Below, piece after piece: positions 1 to 64,000 of a DNA stretch of 64,000 nt. Under the pieces are notes generated by a model. The model made no database searches and was not told the origin of the DNA. It saw only the letters and a program-made list of their open reading frames with translations. Position 1 is the stretch's first letter; every line of letters starts with the position of its first letter. The translations under genes were made by a program, and so were the position numbers. Source of the stretch: a virus. Location of the stretch: positions 1-64,000 of IMG/VR virus record IMGVR_UViG_3300046744_000381. One strand, written 5' to 3'.

Positions 1-1
1 A

Positions 2-970
2 GACGAAGGACTAGGAAGTAGAGCATTTGAAATACCAGACGGTGAGGAAGAAATAGCTTTAACTGACGAAGAACTTGATATTGTTAGAGATCTAGCAAGC
101 CAAAAAGAAGACATTATTTTAGCAGCAGTTGACCTTATATTCGAACAAAACAATCCAAGTAAATTATACATTGACACAATTTATCCTGGATTCAAACAAC
201 AGACAGGTGAATTTATTGAATTTGAACTTGGTGGAAAAGGCGACAATGCGTGGACAAACAAATTCTTTTCTGAAAACACAACTGATAGCAATCCGTTAAT
301 GGCAAAACTATTAACAAAATTTGCTGAGAGTAAAGGCAAAAGTCCGTTAGAGGTAATTGCTTTTGTTGCACCAAAAGGTGTTGCAGATGAATTCAAAAAG
401 GCATTAGATAGAACTACATTCTTAGGTGTGTTTAATAATGTCGACGAGGAGCACCTTAGAAGACTTGTAAAATCATTAGTTAGCAGAGAAGATTTTGATC
501 TAGTAGACAAATATTTTGATGGTGATCTACAACGTGTAATAGAAGAAAAAGATTGGTGGAGATCAGACGAAGACTCACTGGCGCTATTAGATAAAATAGG
601 CATTAATCCCAAAGAACAAGACGCAGAGGATAACAAAGAAGAGATAATTAATTCCGTAGATGAAATTAGTAGTGTGCTTGACGAATTACAAAATTTCAGA
701 GGTGATATTGCGGGCAGAGGTGAGCTTATATCCTCAATTAATTTATTAGCATTTATGAAAAAACTCGAAGAATTATACAAGTCTGTAGGATTAGACGACG
801 AATACGGGAATGACAATACTATAGAAGATGCATTAAGCATACTTGAACCTTATCTGTTTAAGTATAACGATACTAGTATGAATGCTAGACTTGATGCTGC
901 ATTTAAAGATATACCAGATTTTGAAGAAGCAAGAGAAATTTATATGACATTATGGGAAGAATTCAATTAA
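2..970 (+). CDS. acidic hypothetical protein, 5' truncated by the window edge
   Basis: The frame of ORF 299..970 stays open back to position 2 (DEGLGSRAFEIPDGEEE...). No motif recognised. Confidence 0.75.
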   Translation, partial: DEGLGSRAFEIPDGEEEIALTDEELDIVRDLASQKEDIILAAVDLIFEQNNPSKLYIDTIYPGFKQQTGEFIEFELGGKGDNAWTNKFFSENTTDSNPLMAKLLTKFAESKGKSPLEVIAFVAPKGVADEFKKALDRTTFLGVFNNVDEEHLRRLVKSLVSREDFDLVDKYFDGDLQRVIEEKDWWRSDEDSLALLDKIGINPKEQDAEDNKEEIINSVDEISSVLDELQNFRGDIAGRGELISSINLLAFMKKLEELYKSVGLDDEYGNDNTIEDALSILEPYLFKYNDTSMNARLDAAFKDIPDFEEAREIYMTLWEEFN

Positions 971-1650
971 AAAAAACTATTGATGTTTACGATTTAGAAG
1001 AACGAGAACTTTACAAAAAACTTCCACACTTACATAAGTGGTGGAACAAATTATACCTAGCCGAAACAATGGGCTACAGTTGTGGTCCAGGTGCTACAGA
1101 AATTCCAGCAACAAAAGAATATGTAATTAGACCAATATATAACTTAGGCGGAATGGGTATTTGTACGACAATAAAGGTTTTAGAAAAGGGTGATATTTCA
1201 AGTGTACCTCCAGGATATTTTTGGTGCGAGTATTTTGAAGGTAGACATTTTTCAACAACATATTATAAAGAAGACAATGAATGGAAATGTTTGCATAATT
1301 GGCAAGGCTGGAATGATAAATCAAATGTAATTAAGTTTACAAGATGGAAAAAAAGTGATAGTATACCTGTACTACCAGAACCGTTAGCAGCAATAGATAT
1401 ACCTATAATAAATGTAGAATACAAAGAAAATAATCCTATAGAATTACATTTTAGACCTAGCGGTAATCCAGATGGAACATCAGAAGATAGATGGAATGAA
1501 TATATACCTATATGGCAAGATACATCAACAAGTTATAAAGAATCGCTTGTAACCGAAGGATATCAATGGATAGATAATCCTTACGAAGATTGGTACGAAG
1601 ATATCGAGCCATATTTCAAAGAACAAAGATTAGGGTATTATGTACGGTAG
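952..1650 (+). CDS. hypothetical phage protein, possibly ATP-grasp-like
   Basis: 232 aa. YVIRPIYNLGGMG and YFWCEYFEGRHFS resemble ATP-grasp segments (inference). Confidence 0.5.
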   Translation: MGRIQLKKTIDVYDLEERELYKKLPHLHKWWNKLYLAETMGYSCGPGATEIPATKEYVIRPIYNLGGMGICTTIKVLEKGDISSVPPGYFWCEYFEGRHFSTTYYKEDNEWKCLHNWQGWNDKSNVIKFTRWKKSDSIPVLPEPLAAIDIPIINVEYKENNPIELHFRPSGNPDGTSEDRWNEYIPIWQDTSTSYKESLVTEGYQWIDNPYEDWYEDIEPYFKEQRLGYYVR

Positions 1651-2086
1651 AATAGATTTATCTAAAATAGACTATGAGTTAGATCCGGATATTGTATCTG
1701 TAAGACCTACACTAAAAGAAGCCTCAGAAGTATTTGTAACATATTGTAAACACAAAAATTTCGAAAGTGTACATCCTTTATATCAAGATGATATCGATCT
1801 TTATGCTTGGAATTGTTTGTATGAAAATAACAAACTTATTGCTTGGGAGCAGACACTGCTCTATCCAAATGATAAAGTAGGATTTAGTCAACAATTTGCT
1901 TGGAATTATGAACAACCTTGGAAGCGTATTGGTTGGCGTTTTAGTCACCACGTTCCTGCTTGGATGAAGTCACAAGGATATAAGTATCTTTACTTAGGTG
2001 ACCACCAAGAATATAAAGCAGAAATTGTAGGATATGAAATATTGGCGCATATAGATAAACACGTAGACGGGTCATTTAAAGCTTGA
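1640..2086 (+). CDS. GNAT-fold protein resembling the C-terminal domain of Arg-tRNA-protein transferase
   Basis: QFAWNYEQPWKRIG...WMKSQGYKYLYLG...YK resembles the ATE_C ending. Confidence 0.45.
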   Translation: MYGRIDLSKIDYELDPDIVSVRPTLKEASEVFVTYCKHKNFESVHPLYQDDIDLYAWNCLYENNKLIAWEQTLLYPNDKVGFSQQFAWNYEQPWKRIGWRFSHHVPAWMKSQGYKYLYLGDHQEYKAEIVGYEILAHIDKHVDGSFKA

Positions 2087-2111
2087 CATTTTGACAATAT
2101 TCTATTATTAT
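2083..2111 (+). promoter_or_regulatory. sigma70-type promoter
   Basis: TTGACA-17 nt-TATTAT upstream of an AAGGAG RBS and the ATG at 2137. Confidence 0.6.
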
Positions 2112-2694: not shown

Positions 2695-5376
2695 ATGCCA
2701 TATGTAGATGCATTTTTTGATAGAGACGCTGATATTATTCGTGCAGTAGAACGCAAAGACGGAAAGCGACTTTATAATGAATATCAAGCCAAATACACTT
2801 GGTACTATGAAGATCCACGTGGCAAATACAAAAGCATCTTCGGTGATCCGTTACAACGTGTAGTATGTAAAAACACAAAAGACTTTCGAAAAGAACTTGC
2901 TATTAATAAAGGCAAGAATATGTTTGAATCGGATGTAAATCCTATATTTCAATGTTTAAGTGAAAATTACTTGAACCAAGATGCACCAAAGTTGAATGTG
3001 GCGTTTTGGGATATTGAAACTGACTTTGATCCAGAACGTGGATTTGCTCCAGTTGAAGATCCATTTATGCCTATTACTGCTATTACAGTACATTTGCAAT
3101 GGTTAGATATGTTAATTACAGTTGCTATGCCTCCCAAAGGGTTGCCAATTGAAGAAGCAAGGGCAATGTGTAAAGAACGCTGGGGCGATACTTGTATATT
3201 ATATCCGAATAGCAAACAAGGTGAAGGAGATATGCTGGAAGCATTTCTTGACCTAATTGAGGATGCTGATATTCATAGTGGTTGGAACAGCGAAGGCTAT
3301 GACGTTCCATACACTGTTAATAGAATACAACGTGTATTAAGCAAAGATGATACCAGACGTTTCTGTTTATGGGGGCAGTTGCCTAAGCGTAGAGAATATG
3401 AAAAGTTTGGCAAGACAAGTGAAACGTATGATACTATCGGAAGAGTACATATGGACTATCTTAACTTGTATCGCAAGTACACATATGAAGAACGTCACAC
3501 ATATAGACTAGACGCTATTGGTGAAATGGAAGTAGGCGAGAACAAGACTGTGTATGAAGGCACACTTGATCAGCTTTACAACAACGACTTTGAAAAGTTT
3601 ATTGAATACAACAGACAAGACGTTGCACTGCTAGACAAACTTGATAAGAAACTACGTTTTATTGATCTTGCAAATGAAATTGCGCACGACAACACAGTGC
3701 TATTACAAACAACAGCAGGTGCAGTTGCAGTTACAGAGCAAGCTATTGTTAACGAAGCACACAGGCGTGGTATGCAGGTGCCTAACAGAATGAATCACGA
3801 AGGCAACACAGCAGCAGCAGGCGCTTATGTTGCATTTCCAAAAAAAGGCGTACACGAGTGGATTGGTTCAATGGACTTAAACAGTCTGTATCCAAGTATT
3901 ATTCGTGCATTGAATATGGCGCCGGAAACTATTGTAGGACAGATTCGTCCAGTATTAACAGATGAGTTTTTGCACAATGCAACTACACTAGAAAAGAAAA
4001 GTTTTGCAGGTGCTTGGGAAGGCAAGTTTGCTACGCTAGAATATGATGCTGTAATGGAACAACGCAAAGATGTATCGTTGCACTTGGACTTGGAAGATGG
4101 CACCAGTCACGTACTAAGTGGTGCAGAGATTTGGAAACTAATTTTTGACAGTAATCAACCTTGGATGCTTAGTGCTAATGGTACAATTTTTACTACAGAA
4201 GTTGAAGGTGTTGTTCCAGGGTTACTAAAACGTTGGTATGCTGAACGTAAAGAACTACAAGCAAAAATGCGCAAAGCCATTGATGCAAACAATAGCACAG
4301 AAATAGCGTTTTGGGATAAAAGACAACTTGTTAAAAAGATTAACTTGAACAGTTTGTATGGTGCTATTCTTAATCCAGGTTGTAGATTTTTTGATAAACG
4401 TATCGGACAGAGTACAACACTAACAGGTAGATGTATTGCAAAACATATGAGTGCAGAAGTGAATAAGATTATTACCGGTGAATATAATCACGTCGGTAAA
4501 GCTATTATATACGGCGATACAGATTCTGTTTATTTTAGTGCATATCCTGTATTAAAAGATGAAATTGCTACAGGTAGTATTCCGTGGGGCAAAGACAATG
4601 TTATTACGCTGTATGATCAATTATGCGAACAAGCAAACACAACTTTCCCAGACTTTATGCGTGAAGCCTTCCATTGTCCACGTCCACGCAGTGAAGTGAT
4701 TGCAGCAGCAAGAGAAGTTGTTGCAGACACAGGCTTGTTTATTACAAAGAAACGTTATGCAGTGCGTGTTTATGACTTAGAAGGCGATAGAAAAGACAAA
4801 GAAGGTAGTTTAGGTAAAGTTAAGGCAATGGGCTTGGACTTGAAACGCAGTGATACCCCTGTGTTTATGCAAGACTATTTGAAAACATTGCTTGATAGGG
4901 TATTAGGACTAGAAGATGAAAAAAATCTATTAGAAAGTATTAGTGAGTTTAGGCGTGAGTTTAAAGAACGTCCGGGTTTTGAAAAAGGTTCACCCAAACG
5001 TGCAAATAAGATTGGACACTATCAACGTCTTGAAGAAAAGCAAGGTAAAGCAAATATGCCTGGACACGTAAGAGCAAGTATCAATTGGAATACACTTAAA
5101 CGTATGAACGGCGACAAGTATTCACAAGAGATTGTAGATGGTATGAAAGTTATTGTTTGCAAACTAAAACAGAATCCACTGGGGTATACAAGTGTAGCAT
5201 ATCCAACAGACGAATTACGTATTCCAGAATGGTTCAAGGAACTGCCATTTGATGGCGATGCAATGGAAGAAGTTATTATTGACAACAAACTAGACAACTT
5301 GATTGGCGTGTTGAAATATGATTTAGAAAGCACAAAACAAAAAACAACATTTAATAATTTATTTGAATGGAATTAA
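2695..5376 (+). CDS. polB: family B DNA polymerase with 3'-5' exonuclease
   Basis: Exo motifs WDIETD, GWNSEGYD and YNRQDV. Pol motifs MDLNSLYPS, KINLNSLYG, YGDTDS and KKRY. Confidence 0.97.
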   Translation: MPYVDAFFDRDADIIRAVERKDGKRLYNEYQAKYTWYYEDPRGKYKSIFGDPLQRVVCKNTKDFRKELAINKGKNMFESDVNPIFQCLSENYLNQDAPKLNVAFWDIETDFDPERGFAPVEDPFMPITAITVHLQWLDMLITVAMPPKGLPIEEARAMCKERWGDTCILYPNSKQGEGDMLEAFLDLIEDADIHSGWNSEGYDVPYTVNRIQRVLSKDDTRRFCLWGQLPKRREYEKFGKTSETYDTIGRVHMDYLNLYRKYTYEERHTYRLDAIGEMEVGENKTVYEGTLDQLYNNDFEKFIEYNRQDVALLDKLDKKLRFIDLANEIAHDNTVLLQTTAGAVAVTEQAIVNEAHRRGMQVPNRMNHEGNTAAAGAYVAFPKKGVHEWIGSMDLNSLYPSIIRALNMAPETIVGQIRPVLTDEFLHNATTLEKKSFAGAWEGKFATLEYDAVMEQRKDVSLHLDLEDGTSHVLSGAEIWKLIFDSNQPWMLSANGTIFTTEVEGVVPGLLKRWYAERKELQAKMRKAIDANNSTEIAFWDKRQLVKKINLNSLYGAILNPGCRFFDKRIGQSTTLTGRCIAKHMSAEVNKIITGEYNHVGKAIIYGDTDSVYFSAYPVLKDEIATGSIPWGKDNVITLYDQLCEQANTTFPDFMREAFHCPRPRSEVIAAAREVVADTGLFITKKRYAVRVYDLEGDRKDKEGSLGKVKAMGLDLKRSDTPVFMQDYLKTLLDRVLGLEDEKNLLESISEFRREFKERPGFEKGSPKRANKIGHYQRLEEKQGKANMPGHVRASINWNTLKRMNGDKYSQEIVDGMKVIVCKLKQNPLGYTSVAYPTDELRIPEWFKELPFDGDAMEEVIIDNKLDNLIGVLKYDLESTKQKTTFNNLFEWN

Positions 5377-7670: not shown

Positions 7671-8399
7671 ATGCAAGATATTCTACAAGACATTGTGAGT
7701 CATACACACAGATTAGGTTTTATTACTACATTGAAGGTTACAGCAGAAGACGATACTCAAATTGATAGTATGGCTGATGATCGTAGTGTAATTATGACTG
7801 CAACAACACATTCACCGGTTGGAGAATTTGTTGGTACATTTGGTATGCCAGATTTAGGCAAACTGGATTATCATTTAAAGAATCCAGAGTACAAAGATGA
7901 AGCAAAAATTGAAGTTGTGCAAGCCGAGCGCAACGGCGAAGTTATGCCAACACATATTCATTTTGAAAACAAAGCAGGCGATTTTGAAAATGATTATCGC
8001 TTTATGAACAAAGCAATCATTGAAGAAAAACTAAAAAGCGTTAAATTTAAAGTTAACACATATGACGTAGAGATTCAGCCTAATATGGCAGCAATTGAAC
8101 GTATGAAACTTATGTCTGGCGCACACAGCGAAGAAACAGTATTTCAAGTAAAAACAGAAGACGGTAATTTAAACTTTTACTTTGGAGACGAAGCTACACA
8201 CGCAGGTACATTTACTTTTGAATACGGCATTACAGGTTCATTAACACATACTTGGGCTTGGCCTGTGGCACAAACACTTGCTATTTTGAATTTAGATGGC
8301 GACAAAACAATGAGTATTACAGATCAAGGCGCTATGAAGATTAGCGTAGACAGCGGTATGGCAACATACGACTATATCCTTCCAGCACAACAAAAATAA
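7671..8399 (+). CDS. probable DNA polymerase sliding clamp (gp45/PCNA-like)
   Basis: 242 aa, acidic, beta-rich. Ends with a clamp-like YDYILPA. Replication context. Confidence 0.6.
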   Translation: MQDILQDIVSHTHRLGFITTLKVTAEDDTQIDSMADDRSVIMTATTHSPVGEFVGTFGMPDLGKLDYHLKNPEYKDEAKIEVVQAERNGEVMPTHIHFENKAGDFENDYRFMNKAIIEEKLKSVKFKVNTYDVEIQPNMAAIERMKLMSGAHSEETVFQVKTEDGNLNFYFGDEATHAGTFTFEYGITGSLTHTWAWPVAQTLAILNLDGDKTMSITDQGAMKISVDSGMATYDYILPAQQK

Positions 8400-9856
8400 T
8401 GAAAACAAATCTTACTGAAACACAAAATGATTATGCTGTATTTTTGCCTAGTATAAGTGGCTTTTATGCTACGTTTGTAGGCAAACAACGTTATGGCGAA
8501 TACGTTGATTACAATCGTGTTCCAGCTGGCTTAAATGGTGTAGAAGGTCTTAACTTTTTGAACTCTAAAGAAGGAGCGTTCCACTATAAATGGGCGCTCT
8601 ATTCTGCAGGACACGCAGACTTAGATGTAAATAAGCACGTTGAAAAAGAAGATATGTTGCGAAACCGAGATAGAGAAAATAGTTGGTTGTTAGGCGACTC
8701 TGGTGGTTTTCAAATTGCTAAAGGACTTTGGGAAGGCGACTGGACTAATCCAAATTGTCCAAAAGCTGCCAAAAAGCGTGAACTGGTTGTAAACTGGATG
8801 GAAGAGTATATGGACTACGGAATGATGTTGGATATTCCAACTTGGACATTCCAAGATCCTAAAGCAGCAAAAGCAGCAAACATTCACAGTTATCAAGATG
8901 CTGTAGATGCAACACACATTAATGCAAAATACTATATGGCTAATAGACGTGGCAACTTCAAAGTGCTAAACGTGTTGCAAGGCAGCAATCACGCTGATGC
9001 AGACAGTTGGTATGAAGAATTCAAAGACTATTGTGATCCTGCAAAATACCCAGAAACACACTTTGATGGATGGGCAATGGGTGGACAAAATATGTGCGAT
9101 GTTGATCTAATTTTGCGTAGACTTGTTCATCAAATACACGATGGATTATTAGAAGAAGGTGTACACGATGTAATGCACTTCTTGGGTACAAGTAAATTAG
9201 AATGGGCTGTGTTGCTAACAGATATTCAACGTGCAGTGCGTAAGTATCATAATAAAAACTTTATGATTACATATGACTGTGCAAGCCCTTTTTTAGCAAC
9301 TGCAAATGGACAAGTGTATCATACTATACGTATTGAAGATCGCGGTAAGTGGAGCTATATGATGGCGCCGGGTGCAGATGATAAAAAGTATGCCACAGAT
9401 AGTAGATTATTTAAAGATGTGGTAGAAACAGACGGAATACTAAAAGCGTTTGAAGATTCGCCTATTAGTAAACATTGCAAAGTAAGTGATATTTGTTATT
9501 ACAAACCAGGCGATGTAAATAAAATTGGAAAGGAAGGTAAAACTTCTTGGGACTCATTTAGTTATGCATTACAAATGGGCCACAATGTATGGACGCATAT
9601 AGAAAGTACACAACGAGCAAATGAACGTTATGATACAGGACAATATCCATATATGTTAATCGATGAGCGTTTTGAACGTATTGAATTTAAACAAGTTGTA
9701 GATGAAATTTTTAGTCTTAAAGATAGACAAAAAAGTTTAGATCTAATCACTAAATATTCAAAGTTCTGGATGCAAGTAATTGGTACAAGACTTAATGTTG
9801 GTAAGAAAACAGTAAATGCCAGCACTAAGTTTGGAGAACTATTTGAGGAGACTTAA
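8399..9856 (+). CDS. dpdA: tRNA-guanine transglycosylase-family protein, probable DNA 7-deazaguanine insertase (DpdA-like)
   Basis: TGT motifs LGDSGGFQ, MMLDIP, NVLQG, GWAMGG, HFLGT and TYDCASP. Linked to folE and queE. Confidence 0.75.
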   Translation: MKTNLTETQNDYAVFLPSISGFYATFVGKQRYGEYVDYNRVPAGLNGVEGLNFLNSKEGAFHYKWALYSAGHADLDVNKHVEKEDMLRNRDRENSWLLGDSGGFQIAKGLWEGDWTNPNCPKAAKKRELVVNWMEEYMDYGMMLDIPTWTFQDPKAAKAANIHSYQDAVDATHINAKYYMANRRGNFKVLNVLQGSNHADADSWYEEFKDYCDPAKYPETHFDGWAMGGQNMCDVDLILRRLVHQIHDGLLEEGVHDVMHFLGTSKLEWAVLLTDIQRAVRKYHNKNFMITYDCASPFLATANGQVYHTIRIEDRGKWSYMMAPGADDKKYATDSRLFKDVVETDGILKAFEDSPISKHCKVSDICYYKPGDVNKIGKEGKTSWDSFSYALQMGHNVWTHIESTQRANERYDTGQYPYMLIDERFERIEFKQVVDEIFSLKDRQKSLDLITKYSKFWMQVIGTRLNVGKKTVNASTKFGELFEET

Positions 9857-10066
9857 ATGTCAGATGTTGGAAAATTAAAAGCGCACTTAGACGAATTAAG
9901 AAAAAAACATAAAGAACTTGACATAGAAATACAAAAACTGTATACTCATCATATTACAGAAGAATTAAGAAGATTGAAAACTGAAAAACTTTGGTTAAAA
10001 GATGAGATTTATAGAATTGAAAAACAATTGGTAGAACAAGGTGTATATGTAAATGGATATCACTGA
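9857..10066 (+). CDS. small coiled-coil protein (DUF465-like)
   Basis: KKHKELDIEI...LKTEKLWLKDEI pattern. Confidence 0.65.
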   Translation: MSDVGKLKAHLDELRKKHKELDIEIQKLYTHHITEELRRLKTEKLWLKDEIYRIEKQLVEQGVYVNGYH

Positions 10067-10226
10067 AAAAGAACTGCGTATAACTACTTTAGAAATGGCG
10101 GTAGAAGATTTGGATAAAATTATTGCTAATATGAAAGAAAAAAATTATCCAGATGCAGAAATCAACGAATATGTAAAAAAACGTTGGAACACTTGGAATG
10201 AAATATATCAGGTAAAAAAACAATGA
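10053..10226 (+). CDS. 57 aa hypothetical protein (not in ORF track)
   Basis: MDITEKELRITTLEMAVEDLDK... fills the gap and overlaps both neighbours. Confidence 0.6.
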   Translation: MDITEKELRITTLEMAVEDLDKIIANMKEKNYPDAEINEYVKKRWNTWNEIYQVKKQ

Positions 10227-10747: not shown

Positions 10748-10772
10748 CATTATGGAACAAGAACGTTATTAT
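10744..10772 (+). promoter_or_regulatory. sigma70-type promoter; may give a leaderless start at 10779
   Basis: TTGACA-17-TATTAT, 6 nt before an in-frame ATG. Confidence 0.55.
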
Positions 10773-11210: not shown

Positions 11211-11223
11211 GGAATAAGGTACA

Positions 11224-14788: not shown

Positions 14789-14797
14789 GGAGACAAT

Positions 14798-15147: not shown

Positions 15148-15185
15148 AAACAATAGACATCCTCGTCTATAACTCGGAGAATTAA

Positions 15186-53972: not shown

Positions 53973-55063
53973 ACTGTACTTATGTTATTATCTATGTAGT
54001 TTATTTCATTATGATATGCTTTGTTTTTTGCACAAGTTCTAATACATCTACTTAAATGCATTTCGTGTTCCGGATCCCAACTTGCATACAATAACTTTTT
54101 ATACCAAGTGTGTTCTAAAATTTCTTCTTTACTATGGTGCCGTAAACTATTCCAATTTGGTTCAAATTTATTTAACTTATCTAGTATGCCTTCCTTATTT
54201 TTGAAAGCACTATCCCAAAGAAAACAACAAGGCCATAATGTTAAATCGCTTGCAATAAATATTTCACCTTCGTGAATGTATTTGCACACAACTGTTTTTA
54301 AAATTTCTTGTTTTTTTGTTTCAAAATCTTTATTTTGTTTTTTTGCTTTGTATTGGGCAATAAATTTATCTAAATCTTTTACATCTTTTTTCTTACTATG
54401 TTCCTTAGACCCTGTAGTAGTAATTTTCTTTTCTTCAACTACAACTTTTTTAATTTCCTTGTCTTTTTTAGAAATTTTTGCTATCCAGTCGTGATAGCTG
54501 TTACGCATACCGGTTCTTGTAGCAAAAGTAAATCCTAAACTTTCAGCGTGTATTTTTGCTTTATCAACTTCGTGTTCATTATGGTCAAATATAATATAAA
54601 TCCAACTTGCACTTCCTGTAGGAGCATAAAAACTATATGCTTGCATATTACGTGATACAATATTAAATTTTGTGTTTACTCTATATATGTGATTAGTTTG
54701 CTCGTGGCCGTCTACGCAAAAATGTATAAACACTAGTCCAGGTCTTTCGGCTGCGATTTTACCTAGCCTTGCCCACCATTCAGCTTTTTGTATTCCTCCG
54801 TTGGTACTAAGTTCGCAGTATCCTCCCATACTTGATAGGTAATCAACCATATCAACACATTCGATATGCAGTGCAGGATCTCCTAGTACACCGCAAAACT
54901 TAAATTCTACTCCAGTATAATCATCAGGTGGAAATATACGTTTTATATCCTCAAATGTAAAACTTTGTATAGTCAATAGATCTTTGTTAAGTGTTCTAGC
55001 ACACCCCGGACAGGCTGCATTACAATCACTTGTGATTTCTAATTCTACTTTTTTAATTTTCAT
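53969..55063 (-). CDS. radical SAM protein with C-terminal twitch-like domain
   Basis: CNAACPGC, CGVLGDP, STNG and VC...PCC...CIRTC. Confidence 0.9.
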   Translation of the reverse strand: MKIKKVELEITSDCNAACPGCARTLNKDLLTIQSFTFEDIKRIFPPDDYTGVEFKFCGVLGDPALHIECVDMVDYLSSMGGYCELSTNGGIQKAEWWARLGKIAAERPGLVFIHFCVDGHEQTNHIYRVNTKFNIVSRNMQAYSFYAPTGSASWIYIIFDHNEHEVDKAKIHAESLGFTFATRTGMRNSYHDWIAKISKKDKEIKKVVVEEKKITTTGSKEHSKKKDVKDLDKFIAQYKAKKQNKDFETKKQEILKTVVCKYIHEGEIFIASDLTLWPCCFLWDSAFKNKEGILDKLNKFEPNWNSLRHHSKEEILEHTWYKKLLYASWDPEHEMHLSRCIRTCAKNKAYHNEINYIDNNISTV

Positions 55064-55084
55064 AATATGCGCACTTTACTTAGC

Positions 55085-55096
55085 TAAATATATTTA
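55085..55096. promoter_or_regulatory. palindromic TAAATATATTTA, putative bidirectional late promoter
   Basis: TAAATA on both strands between two divergent radical SAM genes. Confidence 0.5.
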
Positions 55097-56301
55097 TGAA
55101 TAACAAATTGTGTGCTGCACCTTTTATATCTTTTTATACAGGCTCTAATCATAAAGTGACTAGCTGCTGTGCTATGTATGACCCGATAGGTAATAGCAAT
55201 AAAGACACATTTGAAAACATTATGAATTCAACCACTGCAAAACGTGTGCGTAAAACGTTAATGAACAACGAATTTCCGCCTGAATGTTCTGCTTGTGCAG
55301 ATGTTGAAAAACAAACAGGAGATATTGCAAGTGTAAGGAAATTTAGTAATCGCTTAGTAGACAATACAGATTTTTTAAATAATACTGCATCAGACGGAAC
55401 TTTAATAAAACAAACTCCTGTGTTTTTAGATTTACTGTTCAGTAATAAATGTAATTTTGCTTGTATGGGGTGTGATCCTACACTTAGCAGTACTATTGCA
55501 GACAAATACACAGACGCATATGATCTAGTTTTTGATAAATCCTATGAAAGAAAAAATTGGCACAATAAATCAGATATTGTAGATTATATATTAAAATATA
55601 AAGATAGTATTAGGCTTATACATTTCAACGGTGGTGAACCATTTATGCAGACAGAAGTTCACGAAATCTTAGACGTGCTAAAAAAACATAATTTACAAAA
55701 ACAAATAAAAATATGGTCACATACAAACGGAAGTGTAAAAAAATATAAAGGCGTTGATGTTATAGAAGACTACTTACAATATTGGGGAGAAAATTGCGAA
55801 ATTAGTTTAAGCCACGATTTACATTATGCCAAAGGCGAATATGTTAGATACGGACTTGTAACTAAAAAATGGGAAGAAAATTTTCAACGTATTACAGATG
55901 CAAACATAATGATTAATATACATACAAGTTACAATATTTTTAATTGTTTACATTTGTGCGATTTATTTGATTACTATACAAAACATTTAAATCATAAAGG
56001 CGATTTAAGTTTATGTCCCTGGTATAATCCTAAGCCGTTTACTGCTCCACTAGCACAAGTTAACAGTGATATACTTTACAAAGCAAATGACCAACTTAAC
56101 GAAATGCAAATGATATTAGCCAAAGGTGGTAAAAATATTGCGTGGAATACTAGAGAACTTAGAAACTTTTTAAACATCAAATGGGAAGATATAGAAGAAC
56201 AACATAATAGATTTAAAAAATCAATAACTAAATTTGACTTACTTAGAAATACTAATTTTGTAGAAACATTTCCAGAGCTGCGTTGTCTTTATGAAAATTG
56301 A
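55096..56301 (+). CDS. radical SAM protein with N-terminal twitch/SPASM-like domain
   Basis: LCAAPF...SCC...CSAC, then CNFACMGC, NGGEP and HTNGS. Confidence 0.9.
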   Translation: MNNKLCAAPFISFYTGSNHKVTSCCAMYDPIGNSNKDTFENIMNSTTAKRVRKTLMNNEFPPECSACADVEKQTGDIASVRKFSNRLVDNTDFLNNTASDGTLIKQTPVFLDLLFSNKCNFACMGCDPTLSSTIADKYTDAYDLVFDKSYERKNWHNKSDIVDYILKYKDSIRLIHFNGGEPFMQTEVHEILDVLKKHNLQKQIKIWSHTNGSVKKYKGVDVIEDYLQYWGENCEISLSHDLHYAKGEYVRYGLVTKKWEENFQRITDANIMINIHTSYNIFNCLHLCDLFDYYTKHLNHKGDLSLCPWYNPKPFTAPLAQVNSDILYKANDQLNEMQMILAKGGKNIAWNTRELRNFLNIKWEDIEEQHNRFKKSITKFDLLRNTNFVETFPELRCLYEN

Positions 56302-57374
56302 GCTGCAAATGGATCAAATTTTGCTCCGCATTTTTCACTACAAACTCCTAATTTACCTTCTTTAATTGATTGTGCATTCCAACTATCTTCGATGCTTTTT
56401 AACAAAGGTCCGTCCATTACTTTTTTCATATCATTCATTATTACATTGATGCCGCCTTTGCCGCCTGCTTTATCAATATGATCCCATATTTGTTCTACTT
56501 TAGGATCTTTATGCCACCATTTATACATACGTCCAGCAGTCCAACAACAAGGCATTAGTAACCCTTCTGCTGTAATAAAAATATTTCCAGCGTCTTTGAC
56601 TTTGCATTTTATTTTAGCTACGTTGTAATAATCCATCATAGTGCCGTATTGTTTAGCAATCGTTTCTTGTTTTGCAAGTTCTTTATTTGCAAACTTTACT
56701 TCATTTGGCTTTGATAATGTTTGTGTTTTTTCGCCTTTACGATTTATAGCTTGATGTTTTTCTTTACCAGTCATTTTCTTAGTACTGTAGAAACGTCCTG
56801 TTTTTTTCTTTATAAACTTTTCACAACCCCATTCGTTTGCAAGACGTTCTGCTTCTTCTACTTGATGCTCGTTGTGTTGGAATATAATATAATCCCAACG
56901 TGCTCTACCGCCTGCTGCAATAAAAGCCTTCATATTTGTTTCAACTTTATCCCATTGTACATTTTGTCTATATAAATGATTTGTATCCTCTAGTCCGTCA
57001 ACACTAAAAATTACAGCACCGTTGCGGCCAAAAACTTGTGCAAGTTCCATCCACCAAGGCATATCTCTAGCGCCAGCATTGGTATTCATACTAAGCCACA
57101 TTGTAGGATTATGTTCTCTAAAATATTTGAATATTTCTAATGTATCTTTTGCAACTATAGGATCACCTAAGTTTCCACACATATACATAGTTTTTAATTG
57201 TTTAATAAAATCAGGTTTAAAAATTTTTTTTGCTTTTTGCAAAGTTATTTCAGCATTTGTTAAATGAGGATTGTCGTCACCACCATTCATATTCCTATCG
57301 CACATAGGACAGGCTGCTTGACATTTTTGTGTTATTTCTAAATGTACTTCTTTTACATCTTCATACTTATACAT
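56289..57374 (-). CDS. radical SAM protein with C-terminal twitch-like domain
   Basis: CQAACPMC, CGNLGDP and KC...PCCW...CSEKC. Confidence 0.9.
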   Translation of the reverse strand: MYKYEDVKEVHLEITQKCQAACPMCDRNMNGGDDNPHLTNAEITLQKAKKIFKPDFIKQLKTMYMCGNLGDPIVAKDTLEIFKYFREHNPTMWLSMNTNAGARDMPWWMELAQVFGRNGAVIFSVDGLEDTNHLYRQNVQWDKVETNMKAFIAAGGRARWDYIIFQHNEHQVEEAERLANEWGCEKFIKKKTGRFYSTKKMTGKEKHQAINRKGEKTQTLSKPNEVKFANKELAKQETIAKQYGTMMDYYNVAKIKCKVKDAGNIFITAEGLLMPCCWTAGRMYKWWHKDPKVEQIWDHIDKAGGKGGINVIMNDMKKVMDGPLLKSIEDSWNAQSIKEGKLGVCSEKCGAKFDPFAAQFS

Positions 57375-57796
57375 TCAATTTCCTCAAAACCACCTGCTGG
57401 TGTAAAATAATAGTTATCAAACTTTTTCATCTCTCTATGAAAAGATTGCATTTTATCTGCAGGGAATACAATACTTAAATTATTAACTATTCCTACTGAT
57501 TTGTCAAGAACTTTTTTTGCTTTATTATGAATACATCGTCCAAAATGAAATCCTCCTAACAATATTTTTTTATGTTTCAAATCCTGTAAATCACAGGAAT
57601 TAATTCCTTGAAACCAATCGGATATTTCTCTGCCACTACCATCAACAAAAATATCAGCATATCTTTCTAATTCCGGAATCATTGATTTTAAGTAATGAGA
57701 AAATGCAAAACATTGACTAAGAAGATCAGGAAACTGTTTTACATCTTCATCTTCACAATATTTCCAAGGATCTATTATTACAAACGCTGTTTTCAT
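57353..57796 (-). CDS. isochorismatase/cysteine hydrolase-like protein
   Basis: FVIIDPW and LLGGFHFGRCI. Confidence 0.5.
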   Translation of the reverse strand: MKTAFVIIDPWKYCEDEDVKQFPDLLSQCFAFSHYLKSMIPELERYADIFVDGSGREISDWFQGINSCDLQDLKHKKILLGGFHFGRCIHNKAKKVLDKSVGIVNNLSIVFPADKMQSFHREMKKFDNYYFTPAGGFEEIECISMKM

Positions 57797-58878
57797 TTAT
57801 TATTTCCATAATCTAGCCAAGGATTAAAATTATAGGCTTTTTCTATAGGAGGATCATCTGGATGAACCAATACATAAACACTAGGATTTTCATCTACTAT
57901 CCAGCCTCCGTGTTTTTTTACATAATACTGTACTAACAAACTATAACTTCCGTCAGTTAAATCTGTGTTTGATTTATAAGAATTACTACTAAATTTAATC
58001 TTGTTGCCGTACCGTAAAATATGCACCGCCATATTTTCGGCTTGCTTTTCTCTTGCTAGTGCTATGCCACCAAATAAATCATAACCTAAATTTAAATCTT
58101 CAGATAATTTACGCAATGCTATATTATCTCTCGGATGACAAGGACCACCGTCTCCCATACCGGCCTTCATATAAGCATTACTCATAATTCTTTTAGTGCT
58201 GTTTGCTAGTGCATCTGTTACTACATCCACATTAATGTTTCCTTTTTTTACAGCCACATCCTGTATCATATTAACAATACCGAGTTTTGTGCTTATAAAG
58301 GTGTTATAAAATACTTTAATACATTCGCATTCGTCCCAAGTACCGGTAACTATACTACAATCGTTTTCTGTAATACTTTGGTAGAATTCTTCAAGCAACA
58401 CATCCGGCTCGCCATTTTCTGTGCCAATCATAATCATTTCTGGATTCAACATATCATTTGCGACTGTTCCCATAGCAATTAAATAAGGATTATAACTTAA
58501 ATTGGTATTTGTTACTAAAGGTGAAATTTGTTCACGCATAACACCAGGAAGCACTGTACTAATAACAACTAATCTTTGATTACGATTCATATGTTTATTG
58601 CATTCAATTACTGCTTCTTTAAGTTGAGTGTAATCAAAATCTTTTGCTGGCAGATGTGTAATAGGCAGACTGCCGTCATATTCGGATTGATGAGGTGTAG
58701 CAACTGAAATAAAAACTATTTCTGCGCCGGAAACAGCTCCTTGTATATTAGGCCATAGCGTTATATGCTTGCTATGTTTTTTTATTTTATCGTATCCGTT
58801 AATACAATGACCTTTTTGAGCTGCTGCTTCTGCGCAAGGCATTCCTAACTTTCCTAATCCTATAAAACTAACGTTCAT
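57793..58878 (-). CDS. UDP-glucose/GDP-mannose dehydrogenase family
   Basis: GLGKLG, SVATP, STVLPG, KVFYNTFISTK and GDGGPCHPRD. Confidence 0.9.
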   Translation of the reverse strand: MNVSFIGLGKLGMPCAEAAAQKGHCINGYDKIKKHSKHITLWPNIQGAVSGAEIVFISVATPHQSEYDGSLPITHLPAKDFDYTQLKEAVIECNKHMNRNQRLVVISTVLPGVMREQISPLVTNTNLSYNPYLIAMGTVANDMLNPEMIMIGTENGEPDVLLEEFYQSITENDCSIVTGTWDECECIKVFYNTFISTKLGIVNMIQDVAVKKGNINVDVVTDALANSTKRIMSNAYMKAGMGDGGPCHPRDNIALRKLSEDLNLGYDLFGGIALAREKQAENMAVHILRYGNKIKFSSNSYKSNTDLTDGSYSLLVQYYVKKHGGWIVDENPSVYVLVHPDDPPIEKAYNFNPWLDYGNNK

Positions 58879-59957
58879 TAAACTGCTCCATTGGTAATTA
58901 AATTAAAATTATCGTACGTGGCATTTTTATTGTAAAGAACATTATATAACTCGAAATTATGTTTTACACGTTCAGCCATTTGATTTCTAATTTTAATTAA
59001 ATGTTTTTCGTCGTATGTAGAAAATCTTTTTAAATTATCAACTATAATTTGTATCCTTGTTTGTAACGGCAAATCAAAATCATACGACTCGTCAATCCAA
59101 GGAGCAAATGTATAGTAACCTAAATCTCGCATCCTATCCAGTGTTCCAGGGCATCCTAAATTGATAAAGGGCATTCCTATTGCAGGAGCTTTAAAAGATT
59201 TTTCTGTAAGAAACATTTTATTATTATCAACCCAAGTTTCTGTATTTAGAAATAAAAAACTATATTTGCATTGTTTTGGAAATTTATAAACAGGATTCAC
59301 ATTTTTTAGATCCGGTTCATCTAAAATGTCGAATTTAAAATTTTTAAAATTTGTTTCAGGATGTTGTTCATAATATTGATACATTTGTTCATAAGCATCA
59401 GCAAAAGTAGTATATCCATATTTTGCTAGATTGTTTTCAAAAATCTTTTCTATAAGTGATGCTCTATGATATCTATAGGCTCTATTTAAATTCATATATA
59501 TTTTTTTTGGTTTATACTTTACTACATTTTTTACTGGCTCTAAAAATTTATAAAATATAGGATTAGTAATATGAATTATGTTCGGGTCGTTTGTTTTACA
59601 TTTTTCTGGGGAAACAATATAAATTTTTGATTGAATAAATTTGCTTATGCGTTTTACAGTTTCAATTAATGTTTTATTTGATTCTAGTAAATCGCATATT
59701 ACAATTTTATTTTTTTCTTTCTCTAAAAAATCTTTATGTCTATTTAAAAATCCAATGATTTCAAATTCCCATTTATCAATGTATATCTGGTCTTCGCTGT
59801 TTATATAAAAAATAGGAATAATTTTTGGATAATCATCATCACGTTTTGTATAAACGATTTCTGTATTAGCTTCCTTCAAGTAATCATCTGTAAAATCTAG
59901 TTGAGCATATCTTGTTTGGTCTTCGTCAAACAATAAAATAATATTTTTATCTTTCAT
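58878..59957 (-). CDS. putative glycosyltransferase (GT10-like C-terminus)
   Basis: LNRAYRYHR and ET...FLTEKSFK...PFINLG...LGYYTF..WIDESYD. Confidence 0.55.
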   Translation of the reverse strand: MKDKNIILLFDEDQTRYAQLDFTDDYLKEANTEIVYTKRDDDYPKIIPIFYINSEDQIYIDKWEFEIIGFLNRHKDFLEKEKNKIVICDLLESNKTLIETVKRISKFIQSKIYIVSPEKCKTNDPNIIHITNPIFYKFLEPVKNVVKYKPKKIYMNLNRAYRYHRASLIEKIFENNLAKYGYTTFADAYEQMYQYYEQHPETNFKNFKFDILDEPDLKNVNPVYKFPKQCKYSFLFLNTETWVDNNKMFLTEKSFKAPAIGMPFINLGCPGTLDRMRDLGYYTFAPWIDESYDFDLPLQTRIQIIVDNLKRFSTYDEKHLIKIRNQMAERVKHNFELYNVLYNKNATYDNFNLITNGAV

Positions 59958-60171
59958 AAATTAATTTTATATCCTTACCGGGGCCAACTTTACTTGGTAA
60001 ATCTCCATATTGTTCAATATACCATTCTATTACAGCTATGTACCATTTTTGACTATTGTGATGCGCTTTTTTATTAAACTGCCAAATATTATCATTTGTT
60101 GCTTGCATAGTACTCAAAGCTCTAGCACTTTCTTTCTGCATTTCTCTTAATGTCAAATTACTTAAATCCAA
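59947..60171 (-). CDS. hypothetical protein
   Basis: 74 aa, coupled to neighbours. Confidence 0.7.
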   Translation of the reverse strand: MDLSNLTLREMQKESARALSTMQATNDNIWQFNKKAHHNSQKWYIAVIEWYIEQYGDLPSKVGPGKDIKLIYER

Positions 60172-61204
60172 TTTTCATAAACCTTTTGTACTTTGGCAAT
60201 TCTAATTCGCCTTCATATAACACAGTTGTCATTGGTAACTTATCACTAAACTCTTTTAAATCCTTGCTGCAATTGACGTGTTCTTCAATCTCAAAATAAT
60301 CGTTTCCTTGTACAACAATTAATTTGCCATCTGGTATTCTATTGTACCATTCTGTAAAATTATGTATATGTTCGGAACTTGTATTGATTATAGTATCCGG
60401 CGTGTCCCATAATAATTCTTCTTCACCGTTTGATTTATAAACACGATAAACGTGATCGTCATTGAAGTTTATATCGTGTATATCTTGAACACTTGCTTTA
60501 AATTTCCAATCATCCACTACCCATTTTTTATTAAATATTTCTGCAATAGTAGGACAACTATTATCAACATCAAAACTTCTAATTTTTATAACATCTAAAT
60601 TGTTTTCAAACATCATTGTTGCAAGTGTTCCATACCAGCCTGCACACAAAAAAACTGTTCCTAAACTCATACTTGTTTTTTTAAGTTCGTCTATTAACCA
60701 TAACTTACTTTCAAGTTGTCCTCTACTAAAGCAATCTTCGTCAAACTTAATTTCTTTTTCCAGCAATGTTTTAAAAGCATATACAAACTGACTATTAGTA
60801 TAGTGTTCTAATAATCTCCATAAATCATAATAGTTGTCATTTAACACTAATCCTTTTAAATCTTTGCTTTTTAAAATCCTAAATATACTGTGTATATTTT
60901 TGTCAAGTACAGCTTTACGTAAATCTTCAGTGCCAGGTAATAATCTAAATAAGCTATGCAAGTTTTCTTCAAGTACCGCTTTACGTAAATCTTCAGTTTC
61001 TCCAATTATGCGTTTATTATCAATTACACGAAATATACTATGCCAATTTTCTTCCATTACAGCTTTGCGCAAATCTTCATTACAATCCGATAATTTAAAT
61101 ATGCTTGTTAAATCTTGATCAATATATGCTCTGCGGAGATCTGAAAGACGCTCATCGTGTTTGTACAATAGCTCAAATCTGTCTAGTAACTTATAAATTT
61201 CCAT
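60158..61204 (-). CDS. class I SAM-dependent methyltransferase-like protein with N-terminal helical repeats
   Basis: LCAGWYG, SFDVD, INTSSEH and QGNDY. EDLRKAV repeats. Confidence 0.65.
   Translation of the reverse strand: MEIYKLLDRFELLYKHDERLSDLRRAYIDQDLTSIFKLSDCNEDLRKAVMEENWHSIFRVIDNKRIIGETEDLRKAVLEENLHSLFRLLPGTEDLRKAVLDKNIHSIFRILKSKDLKGLVLNDNYYDLWRLLEHYTNSQFVYAFKTLLEKEIKFDEDCFSRGQLESKLWLIDELKKTSMSLGTVFLCAGWYGTLATMMFENNLDVIKIRSFDVDNSCPTIAEIFNKKWVVDDWKFKASVQDIHDINFNDDHVYRVYKSNGEEELLWDTPDTIINTSSEHIHNFTEWYNRIPDGKLIVVQGNDYFEIEEHVNCSKDLKEFSDKLPMTTVLYEGELELPKYKRFMKIGFK
60904..61080 (-). repeat. three intragenic repeats encoding EDLRKAV...HSxFR
   Basis: Near-identical caagtac-gctttacgtaaatcttcagt at 60904 and 60970, with a third copy near 61061. 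Confidence 0.85.
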
Positions 61205-62831
61205 TAAACTTTTCTCTTAACCAGTCAAAGTCGTTTATCATTTTCAGTAATTCAATATTTCCTTTGTTAGCACTTCCGTACATTGTACCTTCTTTTGCAC
61301 CTTTTATTGCAAAATCTCCAAATGGTTTATCACGCCCAATTGATGACCAAATTTTAAGACGTCTATCAGTTTCAACATCTTTTTGTCTATCAATTACTTT
61401 ACTACTTAGCTTACAACATTCTCTAAAGGCACTTTTCCAAGTTTCGAATTCTCCTGTATTAAACGCAGTAATATTAGATACTTGTTGTATTGCTCTAAAT
61501 TTAGAACTAATGCTTGTTGTCATATCTGGCTTACTAGTATCCATATCAATTGTTGCTTGCCTTGGGAATAATTTTACTCCGCCGTATCCATACACTAGCC
61601 CGTTAATGGGATTTCTACTACGCCAAACGTGAACGTGATCCCATTGCCAAACAGGAACTTGATAATTAAAATCAAAATCTTCAATTATATTAGCATCACC
61701 GTCTACGATATAAAACATTGATGTTGTACACTGCTTTGCAGCTTCTATGTGTGCTTGGTGTATGCCTTTGACACCGTGTACACGCTTTGCATTAGGAACC
61801 TTTTCTTTGAGAAGACTATAATTTTCATCAGCATTTGGTTCTTGATAACTTATGAATACAACGTCATACGGCTTAGGATTACTAATTACTTTATTATGTT
61901 CTTTTTTATTTGCTATGAACATAAATTGCCATTCTCTTTGACTAATTTTACAATGTTTACTACATAATACAACACCGTCGTGATATTCACCATTAAGATA
62001 TACGTGATTAATTTTCCTATCATATTCATTATCAAATGTAAAATATTCATCAAAAGTATAATCATCAACTAATTCAATATGGGCAGGAACTACATAAAAC
62101 AGTTCTGTTTCTGATTTTTCTAATGCTTGTAAATAATCTTCATAACTGTCAACAAAATAAATTTCATATTTTGCAGGACCTGAACCTGTTTGGCTCCATT
62201 CTTTACGTGCTACAGGAAATCTGTAATCAACTTCTTTTTTTGTTAAAGGCCGATTTTTACTACATAAAAATAAACCATTATATAATTTTTTGTCGTTTAC
62301 TTGATGCACAAATGCGTGATTCTGTTGTCGTAAATCTGACTTATGATGTGTTATGTAAAAGTCTTTAACTAGATTAGTGGCTTGTATATTTTTACTACTC
62401 ATCCAAAACATTTGTGTTTTAGACTTTTCTAATGCAACACTATATTCTTCATAACTATCTATTTCAAAATAATCAAATGACTTTGGTGTACTTGCAGTAA
62501 TTTCAACAAATTTTTTATTAATAAAAAATCTATAATCAATTTCTTTTTGTGAAATTTTTGATGTTTTTGGTACAAGACTTATGCCATCGTAATCATCGCC
62601 GTTTAAAAACATATGCACATATTTTTGACTCCATTCGTCAGGTTCATAATCAAAATGAAAGTCATCATTTATAACCAAGTCAGGATACACTATCCAAAAG
62701 AAGTTAGTAATACAACTTGCCTGTGCTTGTTCTATTGTTTCAGCACATTTAAGGGTCGGTATCTTAGATTTTAGAGCTTTTAACTCAGCTTGATACAAAT
62801 TTTTGTTTGCAATTAGATAAACATCGTACAT
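61191..62831 (-). CDS. GT-A glycosyltransferase-like protein with tandem degenerate domains
   Basis: C-terminal YDVVFISY...GVKGIHQAH...FYIVDGDA, preceded by three related upstream units. Confidence 0.65.
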   Translation of the reverse strand: MYDVYLIANKNLYQAELKALKSKIPTLKCAETIEQAQASCITNFFWIVYPDLVINDDFHFDYEPDEWSQKYVHMFLNGDDYDGISLVPKTSKISQKEIDYRFFINKKFVEITASTPKSFDYFEIDSYEEYSVALEKSKTQMFWMSSKNIQATNLVKDFYITHHKSDLRQQNHAFVHQVNDKKLYNGLFLCSKNRPLTKKEVDYRFPVARKEWSQTGSGPAKYEIYFVDSYEDYLQALEKSETELFYVVPAHIELVDDYTFDEYFTFDNEYDRKINHVYLNGEYHDGVVLCSKHCKISQREWQFMFIANKKEHNKVISNPKPYDVVFISYQEPNADENYSLLKEKVPNAKRVHGVKGIHQAHIEAAKQCTTSMFYIVDGDANIIEDFDFNYQVPVWQWDHVHVWRSRNPINGLVYGYGGVKLFPRQATIDMDTSKPDMTTSISSKFRAIQQVSNITAFNTGEFETWKSAFRECCKLSSKVIDRQKDVETDRRLKIWSSIGRDKPFGDFAIKGAKEGTMYGSANKGNIELLKMINDFDWLREKFNGNL

Positions 62832-62837
62832 ACATTA

Positions 62838-62866
62838 ATTATACTAAGAAAAACTAATCTTGTCAA
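62838..62866 (-). promoter_or_regulatory. consensus sigma70 promoter, leaderless
   Basis: Minus strand reads TTGACA-17-TATAAT-6 nt-ATG. Confidence 0.8.
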
Positions 62867-62897
62867 CATTAGAATAAATACATTGTAGGAGAAAAGT

Positions 62898-64000
62898 ATG
62901 ACTGATTTTATACCCGGAGATTCGTATCGAATTGATATTGTAGGTGCTGATAGCACATTAATTATTGATAGCTGGCTAAGCCAAATTAAAGCAAATGTTG
63001 TTAACAGAGATGGCGTTATTCAAGTTGATACAACATTTGGTAAGCTATACGGTCCTATGGTAGGAAATGTTGAGAATGAAGAAGGTGATGTACTAGTAAA
63101 TGCTAGTAGTCGTACAGTTCATATGGATGTTGTCGGTAATTTAAAAGATTCTAACAATAACGTTGTAGTAGATGTACAACGGAGTTTGTTAAAAGGAAAT
63201 TTTGAAGGTAATTTAGTTAACACTAACGGCGATATGATTTACGATGCGTCAACAAATACGTTGGTTGTAGATAGAATAGTAGGAGATTTATATGGAACTC
63301 ATCACGGAGAAGTTGAGTTAGTAGGATCTATTAGCGGAACAGTTAATGGCAATCTAATCGGATCAAGTAATGGTACACACTCGGGCGAAGTAATGGGTAA
63401 TGTAACAGGTGATCTACGTGGTGATGTAGTTGACGGCGAAGGCAACATTATGCTTAATGGCTCCAACGGTACTTTAAATGGAAATTTAAAAGGTGGTATA
63501 TTAACTCCAGACACAGATGAACACGTATTAACGTGGAATTCTACACTAAGACATCACGTTATTAGAGCAGGATTAGAACATCCTGATTCGCACAAATCTG
63601 TTTTAAAATTAGGCAATACTGACAGAGAAACTATGTATACAGGAAACATAAATTGGTATGATGATTCTCCTGTACTTACATTGCTAGATTATGATGGTAC
63701 AGATAAACCAAGTATACTTGCAGAATTTAATGGTTGTGTAATGGGCCAAGTAATTGATGAAAATAGAGCACCAGTGCTGACTGTAAATGAAGGACAAGTT
63801 AGACTCGAAGGCGGTTCGACAGGTGAAATCAATATTGGTTACAACAGCACAGAAACAATACAAGTATATGCTGACAATATAAGTTATAAACTTCAATCAA
63901 ACCCGGTTAACACTTCTAATTTAGGACAAGTAAATTATTTTGCTTTCAACGGTGACCACGAAAATATGCTTCCACTTAATCCTGGAGATCATTTGATGGT
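62898..64000 (+). CDS. fibre-like virion protein, 3' truncated (not in ORF track)
   Basis: ATAAATA, then AGGAG, then MTDFIPGDSYRIDIVGADSTLIIDS... with GNVTGDLRGDV-type repeats. Appears to stay open to the window end. Confidence 0.7.
   Translation, partial: MTDFIPGDSYRIDIVGADSTLIIDSWLSQIKANVVNRDGVIQVDTTFGKLYGPMVGNVENEEGDVLVNASSRTVHMDVVGNLKDSNNNVVVDVQRSLLKGNFEGNLVNTNGDMIYDASTNTLVVDRIVGDLYGTHHGEVELVGSISGTVNGNLIGSSNGTHSGEVMGNVTGDLRGDVVDGEGNIMLNGSNGTLNGNLKGGILTPDTDEHVLTWNSTLRHHVIRAGLEHPDSHKSVLKLGNTDRETMYTGNINWYDDSPVLTLLDYDGTDKPSILAEFNGCVMGQVIDENRAPVLTVNEGQVRLEGGSTGEINIGYNSTETIQVYADNISYKLQSNPVNTSNLGQVNYFAFNGDHENMLPLNPGDHLM

Follow-up and report, generated by a model that had tools for sequence, protein, structure and literature searches.

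We analysed the first 64,000 bases (hereafter the window) of G000, a single virus record of 136,876 bases (IMG/VR record IMGVR_UViG_3300046744_000381), from which the four-base word CATG is absent. Along the window lie the gene of a T4-type family B DNA polymerase (PolB), a gene for a predicted tRNA-guanine transglycosylase (TGT) with two further genes of the 7-deazaguanine type, a variable slot, and an island of tailoring enzymes (Table 1). The record also encodes a T4-type portal protein (2.1e-111), a major capsid protein (1.1e-99), a prohead protease, baseplate proteins and eight radical SAM proteins. CheckV puts its completeness at 38%, and relatives reach 357,559 bases (L155, an IMG/VR record rated 100% complete) and 335,231 bases (L082). 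A megablast search returned no similar phage record, the best cultured-phage match to PolB by tblastn was Sinorhizobium phage Phosso at 50%, and no tyrosine integrase (PF00589) was found in G000, in its relative G001 or in the complete relative G009. The record is part of an uncultured, T4-like marine giant phage that is probably lytic (non-temperate).

Table 1. Features of the window, with positions counted from its first base (aa, amino acids).
Feature	Position	Strand	Basis or remark
CATG-free stretch	1..64000		zero persists across the rest of the contig, 136,876 bases in all
Family B DNA polymerase (T4-type), used to place relatives	2695..5376	+	Pfam DNA_pol_B and exonuclease domain
TGT-fold (DpdA-like) protein, 485 aa, clade core gene	8399..9856	+	structure model
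GTP cyclohydrolase I (FolE), entry enzyme of 7-deazaguanine synthesis	15186..15893	+	PHROG 2197, 1.8e-42; Pfam GTP_cyclohydroI, 2.3e-36, matched by a single ORF
QueE-like radical SAM enzyme	16057..16950	+	PHROG 2076, 1e-50
HhH-GPD base-excision protein, 135 aa, in the variable slot	17566..17973	+	Pfam HhH-GPD, 1.1e-6, above cut-off
Accessory tailoring-enzyme island, without CATG	29574..62831		about 100 sites expected by share of the window
Residual CGCG sites	9341, 13145, 21914, 22922, 53198 (span 9341..53201)		second, clade-wide depletion

Absence of CATG from the contig

CATG is its own reverse complement, a four-base palindrome of the Type II kind, and it occurs on neither strand of the window. 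The number of sites expected there is 201 from base composition, 261 under a first-order Markov model and 200 under a second-order model, and 100 shuffles that preserved dinucleotides gave a mean of 262.9 (standard deviation 17.0), none of them reaching zero. Over the entire record the zero count stands against 437.5 sites expected by composition and 373.2 under the second-order model, and the Poisson probability of finding none is below 1e-86 under every expectation applied. A first-pass annotation of the window, made by a model from the letters alone, had reported that CATG was missing, that composition predicted well over a hundred sites, and that GATC, GTAC, AGCT, TGCA, CCGG and GGCC were common; the counts bear it out on each point, with 0 sites observed against 200–263 expected and the six other palindromes present 158, 216, 124, 382, 59 and 40 times respectively.

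A census of 4-mers against Markov expectation, run on both the window and the contig, showed that the depletion does not extend to many unrelated words, CGCG being the one other strongly depleted 4-mer. After CATG, the lowest ratios of observed to expected counts in the window belong to CGCG (5/34, or 0.15) and GGCC (40/71, or 0.56), and all remaining words stand at 0.57 or above. Across the record, strong depletion beyond CATG is confined to CGCG (12 sites against 74–122 expected) and the six-base palindrome GTGCAC (1 against 27).

The make-up of the absence was followed through 138 called open reading frames (ORFs) that cover 93% of the contig. This set omits an ORF of at least 2,420 aa that is open at its 3' end at the contig end, where 13 small ORFs stand in its place, a flaw that slightly shifts the codon tallies and leaves the zero count of CATG unaffected. 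When synonymous codons were resampled 100 times with the genome's own usage, the ORFs contained 295.1 ± 13.5 CATG sites (minimum 264), compared with none observed. Every reading-frame position of the word is affected: histidine ahead of a codon starting with G is encoded by CAC in 181 of 181 cases, compared with 430 CAT and 188 CAC ahead of A, C or T; a codon ending in C never precedes ATG (0 of 755, against 12.4% ahead of other codons); and NCA never precedes TGN (0 of 194, against 54% in other contexts). The base before the 108 ATG start codons is likewise never C. The exclusive use of CAC before codons starting with G, and the avoidance of NCA before tryptophan and cysteine codons, had both been picked out by eye in the first-pass annotation and turn out to hold genome-wide.

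The codons that stand in for CATG are varied (NNT, NCT and CAC), CACG shows no excess (214 sites against 213 expected), and the one-mismatch neighbours of CATG lie at 1.01–1.46 of expectation. The purge of CATG consists of silent codon choices alone. Some 920 synonymous single changes in the record would each make a CATG and none is present, which argues that selection against the word, or its removal, is ongoing.

The sequence itself recurs in other data. Of the sampled words of window 2695–12575, 97–99% were present in each of 20 runs of seawater or marine origin drawn from 17 studies, all 20 of the runs being flagged as possible sources of the record and at most 16 of the studies being independent. 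Contigs from three of these runs, each of a different study and each a possible source, match window 1–20000 in pieces of up to 9.4 kb with 0–1 differences per piece, and the raw reads of X22 over the stretch number 26, all of them partial. None of the 40 listed population variants creates a CATG, an uninformative count, since 1.9% of possible single changes do so and 40 variants would on average yield about 0.8.

Relatives and the words they have lost

To place relatives, we scanned viral_contigs with the polymerase, obtaining 593 relatives of which the best 80 (75–96% identity) were used; a second query added 46 loci, for a total of 126, and words were counted in each relative over a locus of 4–23 kb. 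The nearest relative, L001, has a PolB 96% identical to that of G000 in amino acids and 88.9% in nucleotides, with differences at 101 of 308 fourfold sites. Its locus contains 58 CATG sites against 63 expected (58/63, a notation used below for all loci) and no AGCT (0/63), and that of L002 contains CATG at 50/69. Within the PolB gene alone, G000 has no CATG, and L001, L002, L003, L005 and L008 have 5, 8, 6, 13 and 6 copies respectively. Among the best 80, the word is lost only in L011 (1/54), L012 (0/69), L013 (0/32) and L045 (0/24). The loss of CATG is lineage-specific and reflects no clade-wide bias.

Many of the relatives have lost a different word. GTAC is at zero in L004–L007, L018, L022, L033, L035 and L149 and nearly so in L064 (2/20); AGCT is missing from L025 (0/39), L078 (0/48) and L080 (0/31) as well as from L001, and partly depleted in L050–L055 and L135; AATT is reduced in L008 (18/204), L034 (3/65) and L028 (23/142); GCGC is at zero in L046, L072, L075, L138 and L173; and L174 has no CTAG (0/50). 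A 4-mer at or below 10% of expectation was present in 39 of 81 sequences and in 8 of the 46 further loci. Almost all such words are palindromes, and the few that are not (AGGG, GGGA, CCCG and AGCG) are low-count compositional cases. CGCG is low in nearly all relatives. A literature search, which took in papers and not their supplements, found no paper on the word purges of this clade. As a separate observation, GATC reaches or exceeds its expected count in almost every relative (L019 at 42/24 and L020 at 53/28, with L054 and L066 alike) and is never purged in the 126 loci.

Larger records repeat the pattern. G001 (67 kb) is almost free of CATG (3/226), G002 (43.7 kb) has no GTAC (0/129), and G003 (256.6 kb) has AGCT at 104/610, evenly spread; GTGCAC is depleted in all three. 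G003 is one of the partly purged intermediates, another being L009 with CATG at 21/52. Of the three CATG sites left in G001, two lie inside a gene for which G000, G002 and G003 have no homologue, which fits a recent import that has yet to be purged.

In a tree of PolB proteins, G000 is sister to L001 with a support of 99 in the Shimodaira–Hasegawa-like approximate likelihood ratio test (SH-aLRT), and the 12-row clade around the pair (support 100) includes GTAC-free, AATT-poor, AGCT-free, CATG-free and unpurged members. The CATG-free state requires at least three changes on this tree, and the approximately unbiased (AU) test rejects a single clade of all five CATG-free rows (p = 7.5e-55).

Ancestral sites, as judged by the relatives that share them, have gone from G000. 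In a four-way alignment, 23 CATG positions are common to L001 and at least one outgroup and none is kept in G000, compared with 112 of 221 such positions for six other palindromes (Fisher p = 4e-7); this alignment is rough, with 12,940 ungapped of 20,042 columns at 73–82% identity. The cleaner PolB codon alignment gives the same picture for a smaller number of sites, those present in at least half of nine clade members, G000 having kept 0 of 6 CATG sites and 63 of 89 sites of other palindromes (Fisher p = 0.001).

Host restriction as the probable cause, and alternatives

We read these observations as classical restriction-site avoidance, in which the selecting agents are Type II enzymes of the host that vary from strain to strain, and put the probability of this reading at roughly three in four. 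In the host strains infected, an orthodox Type II enzyme would cut CATG wherever it is unmethylated, every site would be an independent cleavage risk, and the loss of any one would help. As each site would add its own risk, selection could proceed stepwise, with sites lost in parallel by silent substitutions and new ones removed on arising. Related lineages would face hosts with other 4-base cutters, to which the purges of AGCT, GTAC, AATT, GCGC or CTAG would answer, and CGCG and GTGCAC would be avoided throughout the clade. A host Type II enzyme is the simplest cause in that it explains together why the words are palindromes only, why they are specific to lineages, why partial intermediates exist and why the change is synonymous only. 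Enzymes such as NlaIII, FatI and CviAII cut CATG. Methylation of CATG in nature is mentioned in the accessible portions of two papers (PMC10273834, PMC9516812), and CGCG methylation is listed among the commonest motifs in marine metagenome-assembled genomes (MAGs) in the accessible portion of a third (PMC8919816).

The mechanism is already textbook matter, and G000 is a very clean case of it. Staphylococcus phage K is a large lytic phage with zero GATC whose host enzyme (of the Sau3AI type) is known. Rusinov et al. (2018; PMC6286503), in the available part of their survey, describe non-temperate double-stranded DNA phages as avoiding orthodox Type II sites, completely so in about one-tenth of viral genomes. 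G000 resembles the cases described there in that a short palindrome has been eliminated completely from a large double-stranded DNA phage of lytic type with no methylase of its own in the DNA searched; it differs in the total loss of a 4-base word for which about 400 sites are expected in 137 kb, and in having close relatives that purged different words. GTAC is scarce in Helicobacter and Campylobacter genomes, which the accessible text of PMC10273834 links to restriction glycosylases of the PabI family. The parallel is that near-loss of a 4-base palindrome is attributed there to prolonged contact with a single enzyme family, GTAC being among the words purged in the relatives of G000; the difference is that those cellular genomes carry the enzyme themselves, whereas here a phage has been purged and no such enzyme was seen in the DNA searched.

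The purge stands beside a conserved gene set of the 7-deazaguanine type (Table 1). The 485-aa protein has no match in Pfam (PF01702 included), PHROGs, NCBIfam or the sequences of the PDB. Its AlphaFold model, for which 27 homologues were available, has a mean predicted local distance difference test score (pLDDT) of 78.2 and a predicted template-modelling (TM) score (pTM) of 0.82, and all 50 PDB matches listed by Foldseek belong to the tRNA-guanine or archaeosine transglycosylase group (best E 2.5e-6, TM 0.34–0.51). On this model the protein has a TGT fold and is a predicted guanine transglycosylase. Many alignment columns are invariant across the 27 homologues, among them a GDSGGFQ stretch, which we take to resemble the TGT active-site motif. 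The gene is present in all 41 related loci that reach its position, whichever word they have purged, which leaves no relative without it to compare, and the copy in L001 is 95.7% identical. Of the synthesis genes expected beside a DpdA (FolE, QueD and QueE, with or without QueC), FolE and a QueE-like gene were found; a neighbouring gene of 152 aa matches an unnamed PHROG only. Phage DpdA systems, as far as the accessible parts of PMC10516641 and PMC7544227 describe them, likewise have a TGT-fold enzyme beside FolE and QueE in a replication block. Unlike them, the G000 protein matches no TGT sequence model, and site loss, a second defence against restriction, runs alongside its putative system.

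Several points weigh against a host enzyme as the agent. Of the causes put forward in the first-pass annotation it is the best supported, though indirectly, through the palindromic form of the word, the synonymous purge, its restriction to lineages, the other words lost in relatives and the intermediates; neither the host nor a CATG-specific enzyme or methylase of the host was found, however. Moreover, 62% of the genome is unseen. MAG bins that contain relatives (Neomarinimicrobiota and Crocinitomicaceae) are weak host links, and 268 kb of a Neomarinimicrobiota MAG showed no depletion of CGCG or GTGCAC and a mildly low CATG (0.80); host assignment through the bins was set aside, this sample speaking neither way. 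The genomes are mosaic, which makes independent origins less secure than the tree implies, and the AU test does not reject a grouping of G000 with L011–L013 (p = 0.13), so that at least two CATG-free origins are secure and a third is suggested. Finally, the clade's conserved modification system would be expected to protect sites that contain G, judging from the accessible part of PMC10516641, and the available part of PMC6286503 reports no site avoidance in hypermodified (hydroxymethylcytosine) phages, from which G000 differs in that its purge occurs alongside a hypermodification gene set. For a purge and a modification system to coexist, host restriction needs an extra assumption.

Deazaguanine systems act against restriction, are inserted after replication and in some DpdA types replace all guanines, according to the accessible portion of Cui et al. 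(2023; PMC10516641), and the DpdA of phage CAjan acts in GA and GGC contexts only in what is available of Kot et al. (2020; PMC7544227). The purge beside such a system suggests that the clade's modification leaves the purged G-containing sites, or some of them, exposed. Exposure could come about through sequence context, through timing or through enzymes that ignore position 7. A milder reading, in which the 7-deazaguanine system fails to protect these 4-base sites and the purged words record the host strain and its 4-base cutter for each lineage, is likelier than a weapon carried by the phage, though we hold it only tentatively and at less than even odds.

In an unlikely alternative, a Type IV or IIM-like nuclease of the host would require the phage's own modification and would cut only where CATG contains a modified guanine, leading the phage to drop that context. 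The conservation of the TGT-fold, FolE and QueE set in the clade would suit such an enzyme, as would the presence of G in five of the six words that are fully or nearly purged in relatives. AATT, with neither G nor C, is nonetheless purged in L008, L034 and L028; the purged words are exactly short palindromes; and weak or no avoidance is reported for modification-dependent enzymes in the accessible part of PMC6286503.

A nuclease of the phage's own, the second cause offered in the first-pass annotation, is quite improbable. The phage would carry a CATG nuclease without a methylase, either in the unseen part of the genome or in an unnamed ORF common to the CATG-free records, and its site-free genome would be the licence for a weapon against host or rival DNA. 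Searches of the 136.9 kb in hand, about 38% of the genome, detected no DNA methylase of the families PF02086 (D12), PF01555 (N6_N4) or PF00145 (C5) in G000; PADLOC matched no REase_II or MTase_II model at E ≤ 0.001 among 123 ORFs of G000, nor either model among 9 ORFs specific to G001; and HNH (PF01844) was found in neither record. A phage nuclease has no support in the part of the genome that was covered, though that part is a minority, and many restriction nucleases escape recognition from their sequence. Among ORFs common only to the two CATG-free records, several match no family, with those at window 952–1647 and 1640–2083 as unnamed examples, and in G003 a Type II-like methylase cassette (MTase_II 2.2e-77) occupies the variable slot, so that such genes do move through the clade. 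Against a phage nuclease also stands the route to it, since a gradual purge with intermediates would be hard to select under a protecting methylase and a state without methylase would be lethal until the purge was complete.

The sole nuclease-like gene linked to the lineage is HhH-GPD, present in both CATG-free records (G000 and G001) and in one of nine CATG-containing records searched (G011, 72% identity). As CATG is normal in G011, at 56/66 and in the surroundings of the gene at 17/11, and the gene has no methylase adjacent to it, a CATG-directed role of HhH-GPD was ruled out. The slot in which it lies (window 17434–17953) is bounded by a 135-aa ORF (17029–17436) and a 5'-3' exonuclease (17954–18940) and holds HhH-GPD in G000, G001 and G011. 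In G003 (202166–206233) the slot contains a radical SAM/SPASM protein, ORFs of 185 and 350 aa, the N6/N4 Type II-like methylase already mentioned and a 74-aa ORF; this cassette is a possible phage-borne restriction-modification system with a possible link to the AGCT depletion of G003.

A chemical or enzymatic clash between CATG and the machinery by which the phage modifies its bases, also proposed in the first-pass annotation, is very unlikely. Only the co-occurrence of a TGT-like gene and the purge in G000 speaks for it, and DpdA can be specific to context, GA and GGC in the part of PMC7544227 available for phage CAjan. The idea is contradicted by L001, which has a 95.7% identical copy of the gene and yet a normal CATG count (58/63), and by the presence of the gene in 41 of 41 loci whatever word is lost. 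Nothing was found in favour of an artefact of assembly or base calling at CATG, or of a neutral mutational or codon-usage bias, and both can be set aside almost entirely. The synonymous substitutes are diverse, without CACG excess and with neighbours at 1.01–1.46 of expectation; contigs from three runs repeat the sequence; CATG is normal in the sister lineage; a count of zero has a Poisson probability below 1e-86; and systematic misreading of CATG would alter methionine, cysteine or tryptophan codons.

Polymerases that are 96% identical, with a different 4-base word erased beside each over hundreds of kilobases, make G000 and L001 an unusually clean natural experiment, and the differences at about a third of their fourfold sites bound the speed of a whole-genome purge. 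If host restriction is the cause, the missing word would serve as a testable host barcode: one expects a host that both methylates and cleaves CATG and, probably, also CGCG and GTGCAC, and the barcode could be matched to methylation motifs in long-read marine metagenomes. A CATG-cutting enzyme should also spare the genome of about 350 kb while cutting other DNA, which would make it an aid to enrichment.

Accessory island and other genes

The island of tailoring enzymes shares in the absence of CATG (Table 1), from which it had been concluded at first reading that its genes are long-resident in the lineage. The CATG-free record G001 shares much of window 41.5–54.3 kb, with 74–99.5% amino acid identity, in keeping with that view; import from another CATG-free genome would look alike, and long residence is therefore one of two histories that the data would fit. 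The mosaic character of these genomes is evident in single genes: the PolB and TGT-like genes of G000 are closest to those of L001, its glycosyltransferase, epimerase and clamp are closest to those of G001, and several genes are common to G000 and G001 alone.

A 198-aa ORF of no known family (window 46460–47053, minus strand) is 99.5% identical between G000 and G001, most of whose shared proteins are 80–96% identical, and this identity hints at a recent exchange between the two CATG-free lineages. A 76-aa ORF with an Smr domain (a nicking-nuclease domain, 2.8e-8; window 20346–20573) is 83% identical to its counterpart in G001; no counterpart was found in G003.

L082 (PBPT01000016.1), whose 335,231 bases are filed in a Neomarinimicrobiota MAG, has a polymerase 76% identical to that of G000 and the same TGT-like gene, and is probably the genome of an entire phage and no part of the host. 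No tRNA genes that might hint at a host were found in the window or in L109.

Beyond the window, three giant ORFs of G000 contain no CATG: one of 4,592 aa on the minus strand (78281–92056), one of 2,830 aa on the plus strand (121017–129506), and the ORF of at least 2,420 aa on the plus strand that is open at the contig end (129617–136876). Within the window, positions 27605–29539 encode a fusion protein that joins a subtilase (Peptidase_S8, 1.6e-28) with a copper-binding domain resembling plastocyanin/azurin (2.6e-6).

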